From Chitinivibrionales bacterium (GTDB lineage Bacteria > Fibrobacterota > Chitinivibrionia > Chitinivibrionales > WJKA01): a stretch of DNA of 17,657 bases. The stretch lies in the NCBI GenBank assembly GCA_038247415.1, contig JBBRUX010000063.1, positions 1-17,657 of the forward strand, written 5' to 3'. Below, piece after piece: positions 1 through 15,716 of this stretch. Each line of letters opens with the position of its first letter. Positions within the stretch are counted from its first letter, which is position 1. A program made the translations under genes and the position numbers. The notes under the pieces were generated by a model. That model saw only the letters and a list, made by a program, of their open reading frames with translations. It was not told the origin of the DNA and made no database searches.

Positions 1-145
1 CGTCAGGCAGGACTGAAGTGTGATGGATGAACAGCGTGAATCCATCAGTCTGCAAAGACCCAGGTGCAAAGCACCGCAGGGCTTGACAGACCGGCTTGCG
101 AAGCAAGAGCACGTAAGAAGGGCCGGTACCGCAGGTAGGCGCCCA
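1..145 (+). repeat. Structured repeat, long copy C1 (four hairpins; may extend left of the window)
   Basis: Hairpins TGATGGAT(21-28)/ATCCATCA(40-47), GGTGC-AAA-GCACC (63-75), CTTGC-GAA-GCAAG (95-107), TACC-GCA-GGTA (127-137). 113-145 matches 2824-2856 at 31/33. The reverse complement aligns collinearly with the copies starting at 10947 and 12438. Confidence 0.85.
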
Positions 146-259
146 TATTCAGTACTCAAAAAAATATTGGGGATAATTGTACTGTAATGGTTACTCTCGA
201 AAATCTATTTATCTTGTTTTGTAAGTTTTTGTAAGTTTCAAATACTATTTTAAGTTCCT

Positions 260-2692: not shown

Positions 2693-2800
2693 TTAGCCTC
2701 CAAAAAGTTCTTCAGGTGTACAAATAATCGGACATTCATACCCACATCGACCGATAACTGCAAAGTTTAGGCGCTTTGGCCTAAACGCTATAATCGTGGC
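2693..2800 (-). pseudogene. 3' remnant of a PIN-domain (VapC-like) toxin gene
   Basis: Manual translation gives ...RPK..AVIGRCGYECPIICTPEELFGG* (TAA at 2693-2695), matching the GYxxPxICTPEEL C-terminus of this PIN family. The rest of the gene is missing. Confidence 0.7.
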
Positions 2801-2856
2801 ACCAAGGGCGAATGCCCGCGCCTGTAAGAAGGGCCGATACCGCAGGTGGGCGCCCA
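2801..2856 (+). repeat. Structured repeat, short copy C2
   Basis: GGGC-GAAT-GCCC (2806-2817). 2824-2856 matches 113-145 at 31/33. 2813-2828 (TGCCCGCGCCTGTAAG) is identical to 12767-12782. Confidence 0.85.
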
Positions 2857-2995
2857 GATGGATTGAAATCAAATTATGACTTTATATGAATTTGTACTAT
2901 TGATTCACTAAACCCCATTTTCTTGCATCTTAAACCTCCTTTTTGTAGCTTCATTGTATCGATGTTAAGCCCTCATTTATTTAAAGGAGGACGGT

Positions 2996-9377: not shown

Positions 9378-9406
9378 TTGCCTATAATGGCAGCATGACA
9401 TATTTT
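9378..9406 (+). promoter_or_regulatory. Putative promoter for tRNA-Pro
   Basis: TTGCCT, 17-nt spacer, TATTTT, ending 17 nt before the tRNA. Confidence 0.4.
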
Positions 9407-9423
9407 TTTAAAAGTTACTCTTT

Positions 9424-9497
9424 CGGAGTGTAGCGCAGCCTGGTAGCGCACTTGGTTCGGGACCAAGTGGTCGCAGGTTCAAATCCTGTCACTCCGA
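9424..9497 (+). tRNA. tRNA-Pro (CGG)
   Basis: Cloverleaf with CGGAGTG/CACTCCG acceptor stem, CTTGG-TTCGGGA-CCAAG anticodon arm and GGTTCAAATCC T arm. CCA not encoded. Confidence 0.97.
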
Positions 9498-9631
9498 TAT
9501 CTCCTCTTTTTTTAGAGTGGTCCTACCCAGGATGTTTCCCCAAAGTGACTACTTTTTGTAAGCAAGCACGGGTAGCAAAAATCCTTAACTGGTTCATTGG
9601 CGTTTACATTTTTACACATAGGTGACCATTC

Positions 9632-10930
9632 ATGCTCAAGTCCATAAAGTCTTTTGTTTTACCAAATGGACTTACCCTTATAGTTTGTCCCAAAAACGAT
9701 GCTCCCATTATAGCAGTACAGGTGTGGTATAAGATAGGCAGCGCTGCGGAGCATGATGGCATTCGCGGAATTTCCCACGTTCTGGAACATATGATGTTTA
9801 GGGGCTCCAAAAACTTTGGGCCGCAGCAACATTCGCGTTTAATCAATGAAACCGGAGGCCATTGCAACGCATTTACCGCCGAGGATATGACAGCTTTTCA
9901 AAATTGTATCCCTACAGAATATTTTGAGCTCGCATTGCAATTAGAAGCCGATCGCATGAGCTGCCTCACGCTTGATCCTGCACTTTTTGAAATAGAACGC
10001 AGCGTGATTATCGAAGAATATCACACCTACATGAATAATCCTGTTGGTAGGGCTTTTTTAGAGTTTCGTTCGGCATTATTTGGTGACCATCCGTATGGCG
10101 TTTCCCCACTGGGAAGAGATCAAGACCTTAAAAGCATGACCTGCGAGGATGTTTCTGCATATTATAAAAAGTATTATAATCCCGATAATGCATCAATCGT
10201 TATTGTCGGCGATTTCGAATCTTCCGAGGCGGTTTACGGAAGGGTGTGCCATCATTTTGGTTCAATTCCTTCTGGATTAAACAAAGCTTCCCTCGAAAAA
10301 ATACCTGTTTTGCCGGTTTCTGCAAAAAATTCTAAACCTATGGTTCGTGTTATCGATTTTGATGTTCCGCTTCTTATTGTTGGGTTTCCCGTACCAACAT
10401 CTGCGGGAATGGCGCTTGAAATTTTACAATTGGTAATGTCTTCGGGCGATTCTGGACGTTTACACAACGTATTAGTTCGCGAGCGTGGGGTTGCTGTTTC
10501 GGTGGGGGGTATGAATCAATTCTTACACCTCTGTGGCATCTCGTTCTTTTTTGCTGCCTTTACCCCCAATGTTTCCGCAAAAAAAGTAGAATCTGTTTTG
10601 TTGCAAGAAATAGAGCGCGTTAAAACAGAACCATTGCTTCAAGGCGAGTGGGATAAAGTAAAGAATTCTGCACTAACGGGTAGAATTTTCGAGTTGTATT
10701 CATCAGAGCAAATTTGCAGTCGCCTCGGATTTTCTCATACTGTAGAGGGCAATTATCAATTATGGGTCGATCGCCTAGCTGCTTTAGATAAACTTACCCC
10801 TCAAGAACTCATGCAGACAGCCTTGGAATGCTGGTCGCAAGACAAGTGTTTTGTGCTGAGAATAAAGCCTAAGAAGGTAAAGCTGCTCTTGTATTTGGTT
10901 GGGTTGATTAGGTTGATATTTAAGAAATAA
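9632..10930 (+). CDS. M16 (pitrilysin/M16B) zinc metallopeptidase
   Basis: LPNGL, VWYKIGS, GISHVLEHMMFRGS (HxxEH), NAFT, LEADRM, ERSVIIEE, HPYG, YYNPDNA. Confidence 0.93.
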   Translation: MLKSIKSFVLPNGLTLIVCPKNDAPIIAVQVWYKIGSAAEHDGIRGISHVLEHMMFRGSKNFGPQQHSRLINETGGHCNAFTAEDMTAFQNCIPTEYFELALQLEADRMSCLTLDPALFEIERSVIIEEYHTYMNNPVGRAFLEFRSALFGDHPYGVSPLGRDQDLKSMTCEDVSAYYKKYYNPDNASIVIVGDFESSEAVYGRVCHHFGSIPSGLNKASLEKIPVLPVSAKNSKPMVRVIDFDVPLLIVGFPVPTSAGMALEILQLVMSSGDSGRLHNVLVRERGVAVSVGGMNQFLHLCGISFFFAAFTPNVSAKKVESVLLQEIERVKTEPLLQGEWDKVKNSALTGRIFELYSSEQICSRLGFSHTVEGNYQLWVDRLAALDKLTPQELMQTALECWSQDKCFVLRIKPKKVKLLLYLVGLIRLIFKK

Positions 10931-10946
10931 GAATACAATAAGATTT

Positions 10947-11108
10947 TGGGCATTCCGGCTTCGTCGTTTGGCCTCCTTCATGCTCTCGCTTTGCGAGCCG
11001 GTACAAAAATCCTTGCGATGCAAAGCGCCTGAGTCTTTTTGCACTGAGGGGTGTCACTGCAATTTCCACCCTCATATTCCGTCCTCCCTAATGTACTTGA
11101 CATAAGGT
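10947..11108 (-). repeat. Structured repeat, long copy C3
   Basis: 10948-11017 matches 12439-12508 at 68/70. Looser similarity continues through a TGAGGG../CCCTCA hairpin (11045-11074), GTCCT..CTAAT and TTGACAT-AAGGT (11097-11108). Confidence 0.9.
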
Positions 11109-11143
11109 ACAAAAGAAAAGTAGTGCGTTTAAGATTATTCTTA

Positions 11144-11191
11144 CCCCTCACTGTGTCGGAGAGGGGCCGACGGTGTACCCCGTGGCGACCA
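11144..11191 (+). repeat. Structured repeat, short copy C4
   Basis: 11168-11191 matches 12789-12812 at 22/24. It has the same GGGCCG-[hairpin]-GGCG(C/A)CCA frame as C1/C2, preceded by a CCCCTC/GAGGGG stem. Confidence 0.75.
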
Positions 11192-11246
11192 GACTGAAGA
11201 TTTACAAGTGGTTTAATAGATTACTACCCAAGCAATTTAATTCAAA

Positions 11247-12308
11247 TTACCTTTGGACTTTATTCACCAGTATCAAGGGGTAAAGCTGAGCACGATTACG
11301 GGTTTCTGATCTTTTGAAATTACCTAGTGTCATTTGTCTGCCCAAAAGGTTGAATTGCACGATCGAATAAGTGCTTGAGTTTACAGGACAGGTCTGGATA
11401 GTTGACAACATGGGCTGAACAGAAGTTGTTGGAAGAAGACCGGCTTTCTGCCATGCGCTATACCAGAGCCGCGCGAGAACTACCGAAGATCGTTGAATAT
11501 GTGCTTTGGTGAAAGGGCCGGTTAATTTCCAGAGGCTTGTATAATAAGTGTTCGGTGGGATGCCCGATCTATCCCAGCCCGAAGCTGTTTGTGCTTTATT
11601 GTCGGCGGCCATGATCGAATCCACGTATGAGTTTACATCAAGAACACAGGAAAAAATCACATCGATGGGGCGGGATAGTACCATCACAGAATCCTTCACA
11701 ATCGTGAGCTCCTGTTGAAACTGGCCGACTATCCCCGTTTCATACCGCGAGTGAATGCCTGTGTTACCGCTGAGTTGCCCATTGTAATTCACCGTTGCGT
11801 GAAGGGCGATATTGCAATCGCCGATGTAGTGCCCAAGGTCTGCGGCACTCTGATAGGCCTTTGTCCAATCGCGGCGTTTTAATTGATTAACAAGAGTATC
11901 ATACATCCAGAGAGCTGCCCATGGTACTATCCCGTTTGTCTCGATCGTAGAAAGCCCATAGCGGGCAACGGCCGAGTCGTAGTCGTGGGTGAACGTTTTG
12001 AAATTTGGGTAGTAGTCTATGTCAATAAAATGCTTCTTAGCTTCGCTTGCGTAGCTGCTTTTACGGTTATCCGCATCGGATGCATGAGCAGAAAAGTATG
12101 CCTTCTGGTCGATGAACTGCTTCATCGATGCGGGAAGATGGGTAACTGCTCCCGCGTTAATAATACTGTGGGCCGTGCCGCCCCAGCCTAAAGAAGGGCT
12201 AGCGTTAAGGGCGATTGAGATAGCGATTAGTGCTAACGTCAAGCGCGTGCGATTAGTAGGGGATGGTTGATGGCATATTCTGGATGTGCAGTCATTTTTA
12301 TGTATCAT
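11247..12308 (-). CDS. Secreted S1/P1 nuclease / zinc-dependent phospholipase C family protein
   Basis: Signal peptide then mature N-terminal WGGTAH. Motifs HASDAD.RK, HFIDID, NGIVPW, AADLGHYIGD..LHAT.NYNGQ, GIHSRYE and tail FNLLGRQ. The ATG at 12308 is preferred because the ORF-track extension to 12563 runs through repeat C5. Confidence 0.88.
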   Translation of the reverse strand: MIHKNDCTSRICHQPSPTNRTRLTLALIAISIALNASPSLGWGGTAHSIINAGAVTHLPASMKQFIDQKAYFSAHASDADNRKSSYASEAKKHFIDIDYYPNFKTFTHDYDSAVARYGLSTIETNGIVPWAALWMYDTLVNQLKRRDWTKAYQSAADLGHYIGDCNIALHATVNYNGQLSGNTGIHSRYETGIVGQFQQELTIVKDSVMVLSRPIDVIFSCVLDVNSYVDSIMAADNKAQTASGWDRSGIPPNTYYTSLWKLTGPFTKAHIQRSSVVLARLWYSAWQKAGLLPTTSVQPMLSTIQTCPVNSSTYSIVQFNLLGRQMTLGNFKRSETRNRAQLYPLILVNKVQR

Positions 12309-12437
12309 ATGAGTAGTCAGTCGAATGTGTAAAAAAGCAGGAATGGGGTATTCAATCAATCTACTATGCATTTGAAAAAATGGCAACCAAAACAATTGTA
12401 AGACAAGATATAAAATAAAAATAAATGCATAAGAATC

Positions 12438-12598
12438 CGGGCATTCCGGCTTCGCCGTTTGGCCTCCTTCATGCTCTCGCTTTGCAAGCCGGTACAAAAA
12501 TCCTTGCGGCACTGCGTGCCTGAGGCATTCAAGCCTGAATGCTTCACTCCGTTTTGCATTCACCCTCCAGTCCTGGCTAATTCGATTGACATGAAGGT
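12438..12598 (-). repeat. Structured repeat, long copy C5
   Basis: Minus-strand hairpins CGGC-GAA-GCCG (12447-12457), CTTGC-AAA-GCGAG (12476-12488), GGCAC-GCA-GTGCC (12508-12520), TGAATGC/GCATTCA (12536-12562). 68/70 identical to C3 over the core. Confidence 0.9.
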
Positions 12599-12751
12599 GT
12601 TTAAACCGTGATTTAAAGAATTATGGAATTACCGTGATTAGTTCGGACAGAAATTAAGAACGTCAAGTAATTCACCCTTCGACCCTTCGACATGCTTATC
12701 TTTAAAATAAAGAGATGCTGTATGCTACATTACTTTTAACATAATATCTCA

Positions 12752-12812
12752 GGGGGCCACAGGCTCTGCCCGCGCCTGTAAGGAGAGTCGACGGTGTACA
12801 CCGTGGCGCCCA
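12752..12812 (+). repeat. Structured repeat, short copy C6
   Basis: 16-nt identity to C2, a perfect palindrome ACGGTGTACACCGT (12791-12804), and the same GGCGCCCA end as C1/C2. Confidence 0.8.
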
Positions 12813-12863
12813 AATCAAGATCCGATTTGTTATTATTTTTTATTATTAGTTGTTTAAAAGATA

Positions 12864-12936
12864 TGGAGCAGAGGGGGTTCGAACCCCTGACCCTCAGACT
12901 GCCAGCCTGATGCTCTACCAACTGAGCTACAGCCCC
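12864..12936 (-). tRNA. tRNA-Ala (GGC)
   Basis: GGGGCTGTAGCTCAGTTGGTAGAGC..., anticodon loop CTGGCAG, G3:U70 alanine determinant, TTCGAAC T loop. U6/U67 mismatch; CCA not encoded. Confidence 0.96.
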
Positions 12937-13095
12937 AAAAATCGAAGTCTATTAATATACTTTTTAGTGATTTGTTTCCACAAGCTAGCCTGGGTCGATT
13001 TATTTTAATAAGCCTTTTTAGCACCTCGCTTGGGTAGCACACAGACTTTGGTGCACGTGATATACCTTTTATTATGCCTGTTTGGATGAAAATAT

Positions 13096-14085
13096 ATGGA
13101 TTTGTTCTTAAAGTCATTAGAAGTTTTGAGGATTTGCCTCCCCGTGTTTCTGCTTATGGGGCTAGGGCGGGAGATGAAGCGACGGGGGTGGATGAATGAA
13201 TCTCACCAGACCTTTATTAATGGGCTTATTTATAATTGTGCGCTGCCATTTTTGGTTTTTGCAGAACTTTCGCGGCAAGATTTTAGAATCTTTTTAAATG
13301 CATCGCTCTTTGTTTCGGTGGTTGTTGCCATTGCTGCATCGGCGCTGTTGTTTTTTTTAATTGCTAAGGTGCTGAGGTTTAAAGGTGCCTATGTGGGACC
13401 TTTTATTTTTGTGACGTATTGGTGCAATGGGGCATATTTGGGGTTTCCCCTTGCTGATTTTGCATTTGGTGCCGAAAAAGGCTTGGCTATTGCAGCAATT
13501 GTCAATGCGTTTACAATTCCAATTTTTGTGGGATCATCGCTGTATCTCGCTCTTTGGTCTGGCGAAAAACATGGGCCAGATTCCTCTCGACCAACATTTG
13601 TAAAGCTTTTGTTTAACCCACCGCTTATTGCAGCGCTTGTTGGAATGCTGGTTTCTTTGCTTATTACAGCCATTCGGGTTAAAGGAATTCCTATCCCTTC
13701 TCCGTTAACAACTATTGTTGTTTCGGGCCATAACTTTTTTAAATTAGGCGGGAGTATGGGGTTTCCCCTAGCTCTTATTACCATAGGGGCAGCGCTCGAG
13801 TTTAAAAGTTTTTCGGCGTATCGTTTGCCCATCTTTTTATCAACCGTGGGCAAGCTTGTTGTTTCTCCATTTATTACGTTTGCTGTTTTTTATTTCTTTT
13901 TTCCCGATGCTCCAAAAGAAGTGCGTGGTGTTGCGGTGCTTCTTATGGCAACACCCAGTGCCGTGGCAAGTTATATTATTACTCGTCAATTAAAAATCGG
14001 AGAAGATTTTACCGCTGCAGTTCTGGTTATTTCCACCATTGCAAGTATTGTGACAATACCGGTGTGGCTGTTTTTTCTGATTTAG
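13096..14085 (+). CDS. AEC (auxin efflux carrier) family transporter
   Basis: About 10 TM segments. Motifs LPVFLLMGLG, ALPFLVF, NGAYLGFPL, NPPLIA, PLALITIG, KLVVSP, ATPSAV. Confidence 0.92.
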   Translation: MDLFLKSLEVLRICLPVFLLMGLGREMKRRGWMNESHQTFINGLIYNCALPFLVFAELSRQDFRIFLNASLFVSVVVAIAASALLFFLIAKVLRFKGAYVGPFIFVTYWCNGAYLGFPLADFAFGAEKGLAIAAIVNAFTIPIFVGSSLYLALWSGEKHGPDSSRPTFVKLLFNPPLIAALVGMLVSLLITAIRVKGIPIPSPLTTIVVSGHNFFKLGGSMGFPLALITIGAALEFKSFSAYRLPIFLSTVGKLVVSPFITFAVFYFFFPDAPKEVRGVAVLLMATPSAVASYIITRQLKIGEDFTAAVLVISTIASIVTIPVWLFFLI

Positions 14086-14132
14086 TTTTTTGATGTTGTG
14101 CTCTTTATTCCAGATTTTTGAGAGGACCTTGT

Positions 14133-15716
14133 GTGAATTTTCGACAGGAAACGTTGAGACGTAGAACTTTTGCGATTGTATCTCACCCCGATGCGGGAAA
14201 GACTACTTTAACCGAAAAATTACTGCTCTATGGTGGAGCAGTGCAGGCAGCAGGCGCTGTATCGGCTCGGAAAAAAGAGCGGGGAACCGTTTCGGATTGG
14301 CTAGAAATAGAACGGACCCGCGGTATTTCGGTAAGCTCTACCGTCTTGTATTTCGATTATGAAGGTTACCACATTAATCTTCTTGACACTCCAGGACATA
14401 ACGACTTTTCTGAAGATACCTACCGGGTACTGATGGCCGTGGATGCGGTTATCATGGTGATTGATGGGGGAAAGGGCATCGAAAAACAAACCAAAAAGCT
14501 TTTTGAAGTGTGTAGACGACGCAAAATCCCTGTTTTTACTTTTGTCAATAAAATGGATCGTCCCTCGCTCGATACTCTTGCCATACTTGACGAAATTGAG
14601 AGTGTTCTAAAAATCAAAGCATGCCCTATCAACTGGCCATTAGGATCGGGTTACGATTTTAAGGGAGTTTGGGATAGAAGAACAAAATTGGCGCATCTGT
14701 TCGAGCGAACTGTTGGTGGTGCGTATCGTGCTCCGGTGCAAACCTATGGCCTTAACGATCCGGCAATGCAGGAAATTTTGGGTGAGAATACCTATAAAAG
14801 GGTTGCCGAAGAGCTTGAAGTTATAGAGCATGCCGGCTCCGATCTTAACCTCGAGGATATTGCAAGCGGAGTCACAACCCCTGTTTTTTTTGGAAGTGCG
14901 GTTAACAATTTTGGTGTTCAGCTCATGCTCGATGGCTTTATAGAGTTTTCGCCGCCGCCTCAGCCACGCACTGCCCAAGGGATAATCGTAGATCCCGAAG
15001 CCGATTTTTTTTCTGGTTTTATATTTAAAATCCAGGCAAATATGGATCCTCGCCATCGCGATCGTATGGCATTCATGCGTATTGTCAGTGGTAAATTTAC
15101 GCGCGATATGCCTGTTACGCATGTGCGCACGCAAAAGAAAATCAGGCTTTCTAATTCGAGTAATGTATTTGGCAAAGATAGAATCTCGGTTGATGAAGCG
15201 TATCCAGGAGATGTAATTGGCGTTATTGGAGGAGATTTTTTTGGAATAGGGGATACGATAAGCGAAAATCCAGCTATTACCTATGCAGAAATTCCTCGCT
15301 TTGCCCCAGAAAGTTTTGTTTACATACGCAACCCGCTTCCCTCAAATGATAAGCGCTTTCAAAGTGGAATAAAGCAATTGGTGCAAGAGGGGTTGGTTCA
15401 TTTATTCGAAAATGTCAATAGCGGACAAAAAACGTATTTGCTCGGTGCCGTGGGCCCTTTACAATTTGATTTGGTAAAATATCGACTTGAGGCAGAATAT
15501 TCGGCAACATCCACAATCGAAAGCGCCTCGTGGGCACTGGCTCGCTGGATCGTTAATCCTTTGCAGGATATATCCTCGATGCAAATACCCTATGGTGCAA
15601 TATTTGTTAAGGATAAAGACGGCAGAAATGTTCTGCTGTTTGAGCGCGAAGCACATGTGCGGTATTTTAGCGATAATAACAAATCAATAGAACTTTCGGA
15701 TGCCCCATTAGGGTAG
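14133..15716 (+). CDS. prfC: Peptide chain release factor 3
   Basis: RRRTFAIVSHPDAGKTTLTEKLLL, DTPGHNDFSEDTYR, NKMD, FKIQANMDPRHRDR, GAVGPLQF. The GTG at 14133 after GAGAGG is preferred over the TTG at 14118. Confidence 0.97.
   Translation: MNFRQETLRRRTFAIVSHPDAGKTTLTEKLLLYGGAVQAAGAVSARKKERGTVSDWLEIERTRGISVSSTVLYFDYEGYHINLLDTPGHNDFSEDTYRVLMAVDAVIMVIDGGKGIEKQTKKLFEVCRRRKIPVFTFVNKMDRPSLDTLAILDEIESVLKIKACPINWPLGSGYDFKGVWDRRTKLAHLFERTVGGAYRAPVQTYGLNDPAMQEILGENTYKRVAEELEVIEHAGSDLNLEDIASGVTTPVFFGSAVNNFGVQLMLDGFIEFSPPPQPRTAQGIIVDPEADFFSGFIFKIQANMDPRHRDRMAFMRIVSGKFTRDMPVTHVRTQKKIRLSNSSNVFGKDRISVDEAYPGDVIGVIGGDFFGIGDTISENPAITYAEIPRFAPESFVYIRNPLPSNDKRFQSGIKQLVQEGLVHLFENVNSGQKTYLLGAVGPLQFDLVKYRLEAEYSATSTIESASWALARWIVNPLQDISSMQIPYGAIFVKDKDGRNVLLFEREAHVRYFSDNNKSIELSDAPLG

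Follow-up and report, generated by a model that had tools for sequence, protein, structure and literature searches.

A dispersed hairpin-forming repeat on either side of a single-copy gene in a Chitinivibrionales genome

The locus and its two repeat copies

The window analysed here, a stretch of 17,657 bp, is the complete contig C63 (JBBRUX010000063.1) of a 3.84-Mb Fibrobacterota assembly from a Chitinivibrionales bacterium of sediment (GCA_038247415.1), which comprises 99 contigs (labelled C4, C9, C12 etc. below), has a GC content of 43.7% and is 96% complete. It carries a gene for a predicted secreted enzyme that is bordered on both sides by a repeat element. From left to right, the locus consists of an M16 peptidase gene on the forward strand (9632..10930, stop codon 10928-10930), the element E1 (10938..11192, +), an open reading frame (ORF) of 353 aa on the reverse strand (11247..12308, stop codon 11247-11249), which we refer to as the boxed gene, the element E2 (12429..12813, +), which is oriented as E1, and a tRNA-Ala(GGC) gene on the reverse strand (12863..12937), whose 3' end lies 50 nt from the E2 terminus. 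E1 begins 8 nt past the M16 stop codon and occupies the whole convergent spacer between the stops of the M16 and boxed genes; E2 lies between the tRNA-Ala 3' end and the upstream region of the boxed gene. This is the gene order given in an initial annotation of the stretch, which was made from the letters alone and which had proposed that the repeats and the gene together form a single-gene cassette; the order itself, including the tRNA-Ala 3' end next to the second repeat, is borne out. In what we consider the likely reading, E1 and E2 belong to a dispersed repeat that forms hairpins, is non-coding and non-autonomous, and is represented here by two copies, which simply occupy the spacers beside an accessory gene.

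The initial annotation had divided each flank into a doublet of repeat members, C3 and C4 in E1 and C5 and C6 in E2 (names of repeat members, not of contigs), with unrelated filler between them. Both direct repeats are real: BLAST aligns C3 with C5 at 68/70 identical positions (10948-11017 versus 12439-12508, an offset of 1491 nt) inside a wider match of 86% over 101 nt at the same spacing (10938-11038 versus 12429-12529), and C4 and C6 agree at 22/24 positions (11168-11191 versus 12789-12812). The likeness of C4 to C6 is no more than that typical of the family: the two 3' ends are 80% identical, and each shows the same 80% identity to several distant copies. Genome-wide BLAST and nhmmer searches show that each doublet is one element, similar to REPINs and miniature inverted-repeat transposable elements (MITEs) as had been suggested, and that the two members are its inverted ends. 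The filler does differ between E1 and E2, but most of each filler occurs in other copies in the genome; the match to other copies extends to ~11106 in E1 and to ~12674 in E2.

The outward ends of the elements read TGGGC.../...GCGACCAG in E1 and CGGGC.../...GCGCCCAA in E2. E1 contains a complete unit of ~150 nt, which opens with TGGGCATTCC at 10947, reaches CTAATGT at 11088-11094 and is followed by ACTTGACA, then a spacer and, in inverted orientation, a second unit that is truncated and has ...GGCGACCAG as its end. Its 5' terminal motif (10947..10972, +) holds a 4-bp subterminal hairpin, CGGC TTC GTCG, and its 3' terminal motif, the former C4 (11168..11192, +), is a diverged, inverted form of the 5' motif with a hairpin of its own, ACGGTGTACCCCGT. 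On the opposite strand the subterminal hairpin of the family's copies (e.g. 10958-10968 in the window) is mostly GCGAAGC-like with a GAA triloop, the sequence of an unusually stable DNA mini-hairpin, which would fit a role in single-stranded DNA. E2 has a mosaic structure: it resembles E1 over the first ~80 nt, and the remainder of the unit and the loop come from another subfamily (represented by copies on C17, C65 and C28), such that past ~80 nt E1 follows one subfamily and E2 another. The inverted second unit of E2 is also truncated, ending ...GGCGCCCAA, and its 3' motif is degenerate (CTAATTCG). Folded as whole DNA elements, E1 is no better than its shuffles (z = -0.57) and E2 reaches z = -2.37. 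The ORFs in both elements are short mechanical ones of <=67 aa that overlap the repeat sequence.

A repeat family dispersed through the genome

The basic unit of the family is ~150 nt long; it opens with TGGGCRTTCC, continues with a 4-bp hairpin with a 3-nt loop, GTCGGG and a variable arm, and closes with ...CCCTAAYGC, which in the source genome is followed by CTTGACA. In a full element such a unit is joined through a loop of ~100 nt to another unit, diverged and inverted, in the manner of a REPIN; owing to this inverted pairing the outer ends read as imperfect terminal inverted repeats, with a core, GAATCTGGGCG, common to both ends and a partial likeness over ~25 nt. Pairing in the subterminal hairpin is kept across copies in the stem variants CAGC/GCTG, CGGC/GCCG and CGGG/CCCG, and a third subfamily carries a longer GGCGC...GCGCC hairpin at the same position. 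In 16 copies CTAAYG and then TTGACA follow 140-200 nt downstream of the 5' motif, and in 15 of the 16 pairing is possible between the R of this motif and the 3' motif's Y. Full copies adopt long, rod-like folds (z = -7.5 for the copy on C65 and z = -5.1 for the copy on C9, relative to shuffles). Element lengths range from 90 to 490 nt; minimal copies of ~55-60 nt exist as well, one of which, on C86, has a perfect 20-nt inverted repeat.

An nhmmer census of the genome returned 56 matches to the 5'-end profile and 31 to the 3'-end profile, which merge into 68 loci of 14,434 bp in total, the longest being <=492 bp; repetition on this scale greatly exceeds what chance would give. The doublet geometry seen at the locus recurs in 20 complete 5'...3' pairs, in which both ends have the same orientation and 19-387 nt separate the matched ends. 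Essentially intergenic positions account for 60 of the 68 loci, as against 85% coding sequence genome-wide (on a crude gene map of ORFs >=120 aa), and convergent spacers hold 13 of the 45 loci with genes on both sides (14% expected). Single copies are scattered over ~50 contigs, some of them in the middle of contigs of 100 kb; by our own count from the census tables, ~10 gaps between neighbouring loci are shorter than 4 kb, versus ~5 expected, and the copies thus gather mildly in dispensable regions. Thirteen of the 68 loci stand at contig ends, again counted from the census table, which indicates that the family breaks the assembly; the repeats also mark regions of gene flux. Two further copies lie in the window itself, both oriented as E1 and E2: the 3' half of one (1..150, +) is cut by the contig start, and an isolated 3' fragment of ~100 nt is found at 2762..2860 (+). 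As to the tRNA-Ala next to E2, 4 of the 68 loci are within 1 kb of a tRNA gene where uniform placement predicts 1.5; with repeats and tRNA genes both being intergenic, such an excess is unconvincing as a trait of the family, and we rejected targeting of tRNA genes on these grounds.

In related genomes the family is almost absent. BLAST with E1 and E2 in 20 relatives gave nothing beyond two marginal matches of ~30 nt in one relative, and the 23-nt 5' motif, allowing <=1 mismatch, has 24 matches in the source genome and 1 in 40 relatives (0 for the reversed control), 39 of the 40 sampled relatives thus being without it. Searched exactly in one genome per species, the same 23-nt motif has 40 matches versus 1 for the reversed control, with ~2 expected at equal base frequencies. 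Its carriers are metagenome-assembled genomes (MAGs) of Bacteroidales and other Bacteroidota, Treponema, Desulfobacteraceae, a MAG labelled Fibrobacter, the planctomycete Zavarzinella and a Paceibacterota MAG; about 9 of the 40 exact matches, including those in three Chromobacterium species, lie inside genes and look like chance. C[CT]TAA[CT]GC occurs within 260 nt of 25 of the 40 matches, and GCTAACGC accompanies several more. With <=2 mismatches allowed, copies number 10 in a Treponema MAG and 19 in a Bacteroidales MAG. A pattern for the 3' end gave 7 matches in the species genomes, all of them in high-GC Actinomycetota or Myxococcota-type sequences, and we took these as chance. The combination of a patchy distribution with an end motif preserved almost letter for letter points to horizontal spread and to a conserved partner enzyme, for the discovery of which the motif offers a handle.

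Comparison with Rfam places the family next to Flavo-1 (RF01705), which the consulted part of Weinberg et al. (PMC2864571) puts forward, in 2010, as an RNA motif of Bacteroidetes. All five re-scanned Bacteroidales copies score 40.3-45.5 bits on the Flavo-1 model, and three of them reach its gathering score of 42; what the model matches spans the arm that the two motifs enclose, read on the strand complementary to that of the unit. The two families have in common the 5' motif TGGGCGTTCCGGCTTCGCCGTCG and the 3' CTAACGC with a variable hairpin arm between them, and both are multi-copy, intergenic and often arranged in inverted pairs. The repeat described here has the Flavo-1-type ends, namely TGGGCRTTCC with the hairpin and GTCG at one side, CTAAYGC at the other, and a variable arm closed by G/C pairs, but its arm in the source genome is longer and different, an extra CTTGACA follows the unit, and the host belongs to another phylum. 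In a cross-phylum alignment of 20 sequences, the stem that closes the arm is compensatory (GC in 13 versus CG in 4; UA in 12 versus GU in 4 and CG in 1); the other two stems are invariant, although they had been selected for. An Rfam scan of the window returned tRNAs only, with no RF01705 match at E<=1, and eight loci with other copies likewise gave no RF01705 match, only weak, chance-level matches to CrcZ and isrN; RtT (RF00391) was not seen among the matches. These data show in part that the family is a lineage-specific expansion in the source genome and a relative of Flavo-1-type repeats of Bacteroidota and other phyla, and the Flavo-1 motif seems to correspond to a single arm of a dispersed DNA repeat larger than itself. 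In the sections consulted of a transcriptome study of Flavobacterium psychrophilum (PMC9723704), Flavo-1 matches are sense or antisense to transcripts and are often untranscribed, which fits a DNA repeat. A limited search of the literature on Flavo-1, on REPIN/RAYT systems in Bacteroidetes and on Chitinivibrionia, in the portions consulted, turned up no description of this repeat family as mobile DNA.

The family also resembles other small repeats of bacterial genomes. With REPINs it shares the arrangement of inverted palindromic units as one long hairpin (the copies in the window, with their truncated second units, fold poorly), the maintenance of the hairpin by compensatory change, and the non-coding, intergenic presence in tens of copies without an enzyme of their own; it differs in a unit of ~150 nt rather than 20-40 nt, in having no GTAG tag and in not being shared vertically with relatives. 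According to the part of Bertels and Rainey (2011, PMC3116915) that we consulted, REPINs and repetitive extragenic palindromic (REP) elements are mobilised by REP-associated tyrosine transposases (RAYTs). The CGTC-tagged REP sequences, which the available text of Di Nocera et al. (2013, PMC3733652) reports also from Bacteroidetes and Spirochaetes, are similar in that CGTC stands directly beside the hairpins, ...CCA terminates the other strand, dimers in head-to-head arrangement predominate and no dedicated transposase is known. Compared by the stem and loop properties described in that text rather than by consensus sequences, they differ in their 8-9-bp stems, in which A/T pairs come first, and in their loops of 4-5 nt. 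The 4-bp stem, 3-nt loop and ~150-nt unit of the family also fall outside the 20-40-bp unit, the stem of 5-13 or 8-9 bp and the 3-nt tail of GTAG- and CGTC-tagged REPs, as far as these are set out there. Terminal inverted repeats, a feature of MITEs derived from insertion sequences, are present in the form of the core common to both ends.

Correia/NEMIS, BOX, ERIC and BIME elements are built from imperfect terminal inverted repeats and interchangeable modules, prefer gene ends and may be co-opted as terminators. The family is like them in its imperfect terminal inverted repeats and interchangeable internal modules, and unlike them in that we recognised no target-site duplication, found no parent insertion sequence and see no relationship in sequence.

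The boxed gene and its surroundings

As the start of the boxed gene we chose 12308, where the first ATG ahead of a hydrophobic stretch lies; the ORF as called mechanically continues to 12563, inside E2. The N-terminus of the protein is signal-peptide-like and is followed by W-G-G-T-A-H. The sole Pfam match of the protein is Zn_dep_PLPC (E = 0.04), with none at E<=0.01 and none to PF02265 (S1-P1_nuclease); when it is aligned with eight homologues, 7 of the 9 sequences match PF02265 (best E 1.5e-7) and 7 of the 9 match the tail domain of the type IX secretion system (T9SS). W42, H47, D78/D80, H93, H160, D164, H170, H186 and E190 are invariant in this alignment, and the invariant Trp-x4-His start together with the His/Asp spacing fits the trinuclear-zinc ligands of P1 nuclease. 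The predicted structure (mean predicted local distance difference test score 66.5, moderate confidence) is nearest to the zinc phospholipase C of Bacillus cereus (target-normalised TM-score 0.69-0.70), followed by the S1 and SmNuc1 nucleases (0.47-0.56). Sequence searches of the PDB gave nothing at E<=0.01 with the profile and only E ~0.4, to phospholipase C, with the protein alone. The designation S1/P1 nuclease in the initial annotation is therefore backed in part, by the PF02265 matches of the aligned homologues; the protein itself has no such match and a model nearest to zinc phospholipase C, then to S1-type nucleases. The protein is a predicted secreted enzyme that clearly belongs to the zinc phospholipase C/S1-P1 nuclease superfamily.

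A database search at E<=0.001 gives 2,088 relatives of the protein. Among the best 120, most carry a T9SS sorting-tail domain, and the few named proteins among the same 120 are from Bacteroidota. Where the Bacteroidota homologues have a T9SS sorting domain of ~75 aa, at the C-terminus (encoded by 11247-11420), a short and degenerate tail is present in the protein and in its best relative. This best relative (60% identity) is encoded on a metagenome contig of 56% GC that shares neither the neighbouring genes nor the repeat; it was found with a two-sequence alignment, single-protein scans of species-genome and metagenome contigs having returned no related locus. The repeat motif, at <=3 substitutions, is absent from the loci of the closest homologue and of two weaker homologues. 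The boxed gene is present in a single copy in the genome, and is accessory and probably horizontally acquired.

The closest relatives of the M16 peptidase are in MAGs that bear the labels Chitinivibrionales, Chitinispirillales or Fibrobacteres. Its gene closes a block whose synteny is kept in same-family genomes. In two of these the order is a hypothetical gene, a helix-turn-helix gene, a transglutaminase-like gene, tRNA-Pro and M16; the M16 gene there directly precedes a second M16 paralogue, and one genome continues with folK, a kinase gene and panC. In the source genome the block with the second M16 gene is located on C12 (37269-40825), and E1 begins where the synteny breaks. In a further same-family genome, tRNA-Ala(GGC) and a Mem_trans gene stand back-to-back, as in the window, and on the other side of that tRNA-Ala are three genes whose counterparts lie on C15 of the source genome. 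Since the M16 and tRNA-Ala sides are not neighbours in any of the available relatives, all of which belong to other genera, there is no empty site to compare. No element was found at the edge of the C12 block (~37.2 kb; sequence and census) or near the C15 block (census), and a rearrangement mediated by the repeats was on this account rejected as the cause of the synteny break. Elsewhere in the window, the Mem_trans gene is present in 1 of 5 same-family genomes, and the RF3 (prfC) gene (14118-15716) has no close counterpart in these five, where the best matches are ~30% identical, elongation factor G-like genes of ~700 aa.

Readings of the arrangement

In order to judge the boxed geometry, we compared it with random placement of the repeats (42 occupied of 1,796 spacers, three weightings, 3,000 trials each). 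Only the boxed gene has both of its flanking spacers occupied, and the simulations give a mean of 0.64-0.71 such genes, with P(>=1) of 0.47-0.52; boxes around ORFs <120 aa and multi-gene boxes are left out of this count. With boxing at chance level, a gene that is single-copy in the genome and no enzyme gene inside any element, the single-gene cassette of the initial annotation is not supported, and it is not needed in order to account for the locus. That annotation had also set out what would speak against a cassette: repeats that are intergenic regardless of cargo, around a nuclease gene that is syntenic and vertically inherited in relatives. The former is what we observe (60 of 68 loci), and the latter is not, the boxed gene being absent from the same-family genomes examined, as detailed below. 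The practical consequence of two ordinary copies of a genome-wide repeat around the gene is that it should not be annotated as a mobile cassette.

A search for an enzyme that could mobilise the family covered three enzyme types. The genome has one Y1 gene (IS200/RAYT-type; PF01797), located at C19:51846-52829 and encoding 327 aa, with 57% GC versus 44% for the genome. This gene is bordered by its own, unrelated 24-nt inverted repeat, its flanks have no dispersed copies by BLAST, and neither TCTGGGCG nor an element was found within 1.5 kb of it, so that it lacks the arrangement of a single-copy RAYT gene flanked by the repeats it serves. Homologues of the Y1 protein occur in 1 of 5 other motif-bearing genomes. 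In view of the missing flanking elements and the missing co-occurrence, the RAYT was rejected as the mobiliser. No DDE_Tnp_1 match was found in the genome, and its three tyrosine recombinase genes are all on contigs other than the window. In the mechanism that we favour, copies would spread to intergenic spacers, or would have done so in the past, by means of an enzyme that works in trans on the end motif and the subterminal hairpin; its substrate would probably be folded single-stranded DNA, as for REP/RAYT and IS200/IS605 ends, and some copies may now act as bidirectional terminators.

The 5' modules of E1 and E2 share bases seen in no other copy of the family. Their near identity is best explained, as far as the aligned copies tell, if the two neighbours, 1.5 kb apart, underwent gene conversion or recombination; arrival of an element from elsewhere fits such shared derived bases less well. 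Through the 70-nt direct repeats RecA could delete the gene, a passive property of any direct repeat and no cassette system.

A number of observations weigh against the explanation that we favour. The first 82 nt of the two elements are reciprocal nearest neighbours within the family (91.5% identity; next best 84-87%), and Campbell-type integration or a local duplication would also produce this likeness. Four copies or fragments of the family, all in one orientation, lie in the 17.6-kb window where ~0.3 would be expected, a count biased by the tendency of contigs to end in repeats. Two rearranged synteny blocks meet exactly where the E1-gene-E2 segment lies; the boxed gene is found in 0 of 6 same-family genomes, with weak matches (27-28% identity) in 2 of 34 genomes from the rest of the order, and among 1,591 long ORFs its GC content at third codon positions (GC3) ranks at the 96th percentile, its neighbour genes being typical. 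On C14 (68400-73600), three co-oriented copies or fragments bracket a ribbon-helix-helix and PIN-domain (VapBC-like) pair and a DUF4143 AAA ATPase gene, beside which lies a 169-aa remnant that fuses the N- and C-terminal ends of L-arabinose isomerase and has the look of a pseudogene with an internal deletion; a second DUF4143 ATPase gene is bracketed by copies on C86. From the VapBC-like pair, the two ATPase genes and the isomerase remnant it follows that the repeats do gather around dispensable DNA. As regards mobility, no target-site duplication was recognised in 18 complete copies or in the information profile of their flanks, and no mobiliser was found among the three enzyme families in an assembly that is 96% complete, so that mobility itself is something we infer. 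As regards kinship, a whole-genome search with RF01705 gave at best 14.1 bits (E 9.2) in an unrelated place, below the gathering score of 42, and we have therefore filed the copies of the source genome as relatives of Flavo-1 by their end motifs and architecture, not as members of RF01705. Finally, metagenome contigs drop rare variants, and a search for excision junctions in them is no evidence either way.

Several of these observations are also what speaks for the most viable alternative, in which the gene enters or leaves through the repeats, either by Campbell-type recombination, in which a circular or linear DNA with one element recombines with a resident copy and two hybrids remain as direct repeats on either side of the cargo, or by composite movement of the whole E-gene-E segment: E2 is a mosaic whose first ~80 nt match E1 (68/70 in the core) and whose rest is from another subfamily, the gene is accessory, a GC3 outlier and missing from all six same-family genomes, it stands between two synteny blocks, and other copies bracket a toxin-antitoxin pair and DUF4143 ATPase genes. 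We nevertheless regard this alternative as unlikely. The boxed geometry is at chance level and the gene is single-copy; the loci of the closest and two weaker homologues are without the motif; no element marks the C12 breakpoint (~37.2 kb) upstream of the displaced second M16 block or the vicinity of the C15 block; and local conversion accounts better for the derived bases that the two 5' modules share with no other copy. The locus resembles a composite transposon or an integron cassette in having a single gene between two co-oriented, hairpin-forming repeats, but it has no integrase or transposase, no attC-type core, singly dispersed copies and a chance-level geometry; the two transposase-encoding copies of a composite transposon find no equivalent in E1 and E2, with their ORFs of <=67 aa.

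It is quite unlikely, in our judgement, that the repeats are functional RNA or cis elements, kept as bidirectional terminators, mRNA stabilisers or small RNAs, with a flanking position that reflects regulation rather than mobility. E1 does fill a convergent spacer, such spacers are over-represented in the census, and terminator-like hairpins with T-runs after them are present on both strands of the elements; moreover, the stems keep pairing, with P2 compensatory across phyla (10 cells; 0 of 500 shuffles reach the observed score), and Flavo-1 was first proposed as an RNA in the part of its description cited above (PMC2864571). Against this, the summed minimum free energies of 20 copies are -2324 and -2346 kcal/mol on the two strands, that is, without the strand bias of an RNA and as expected for DNA palindromes. 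Nothing in this lack of asymmetry points to selection on one RNA strand, and such selection was rejected. Promoter-like and terminator-like counts around the locus are at shuffle level, the F. psychrophilum matches to Flavo-1 are sense or antisense and in many cases untranscribed in the consulted text of that study (PMC9723704), and 24 motif matches versus 1 in 40 relatives is the pattern of an expansion and not of a conserved regulator. Both copies in the window are, in addition, decayed, as judged from their folding scores.

A further reading, which we think highly improbable, is that the repeats are portable recombination sites, whose end motif (TGGGCGTTCC, hairpin, GTCG) would be read as folded single-stranded DNA by an enzyme shared across phyla that inserts and excises single accessory genes. 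Were it true, the E1-gene-E2 segment and the boxed toxin-antitoxin and ATPase genes would be captured cassettes of an integron-like system without a known integrase. An integron-like array, in which the elements are oversized attC-type sites and the window is part of a cassette array or of an attC cluster without integrase, is barely credible: imperfect palindromes with conserved ends and variable middles, the shared orientation of the four window copies and the presence of one gene or a small gene pair between copies, both here and on C14, are in its favour, but the ends, as read by eye, have no core of the GTTRRRY/RYYYAAC type, the attC consensus, the copies of 90-490 nt are dispersed singly over ~50 contigs, the genes between them point both ways and the tyrosine recombinase genes are elsewhere.

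Four metagenome runs, kept as assembled contigs (three of one study and one independent), support no excision or circle junction. Three joints are present in contigs over 9400-14200 (10962>12505, 11004>12502 and 11026>12770), with short sides of 21-31 nt and, in two, extra letters. All three come from other copies of the element, one being traced to the copy on contig C4 and another being an element variant absent from the assembly, and none is an in-register hybrid of E1 and E2 recombination. The independent run, from 2017, contains pieces of the boxed and M16 genes without differences. Over 10984-11004 and from 12502 onward, three of the runs carry a variant with an E1-like left part, six different letters and an E2-like right part, on contigs of approximately the genome's own depth, and at least one copy of the family is thus probably unassembled.

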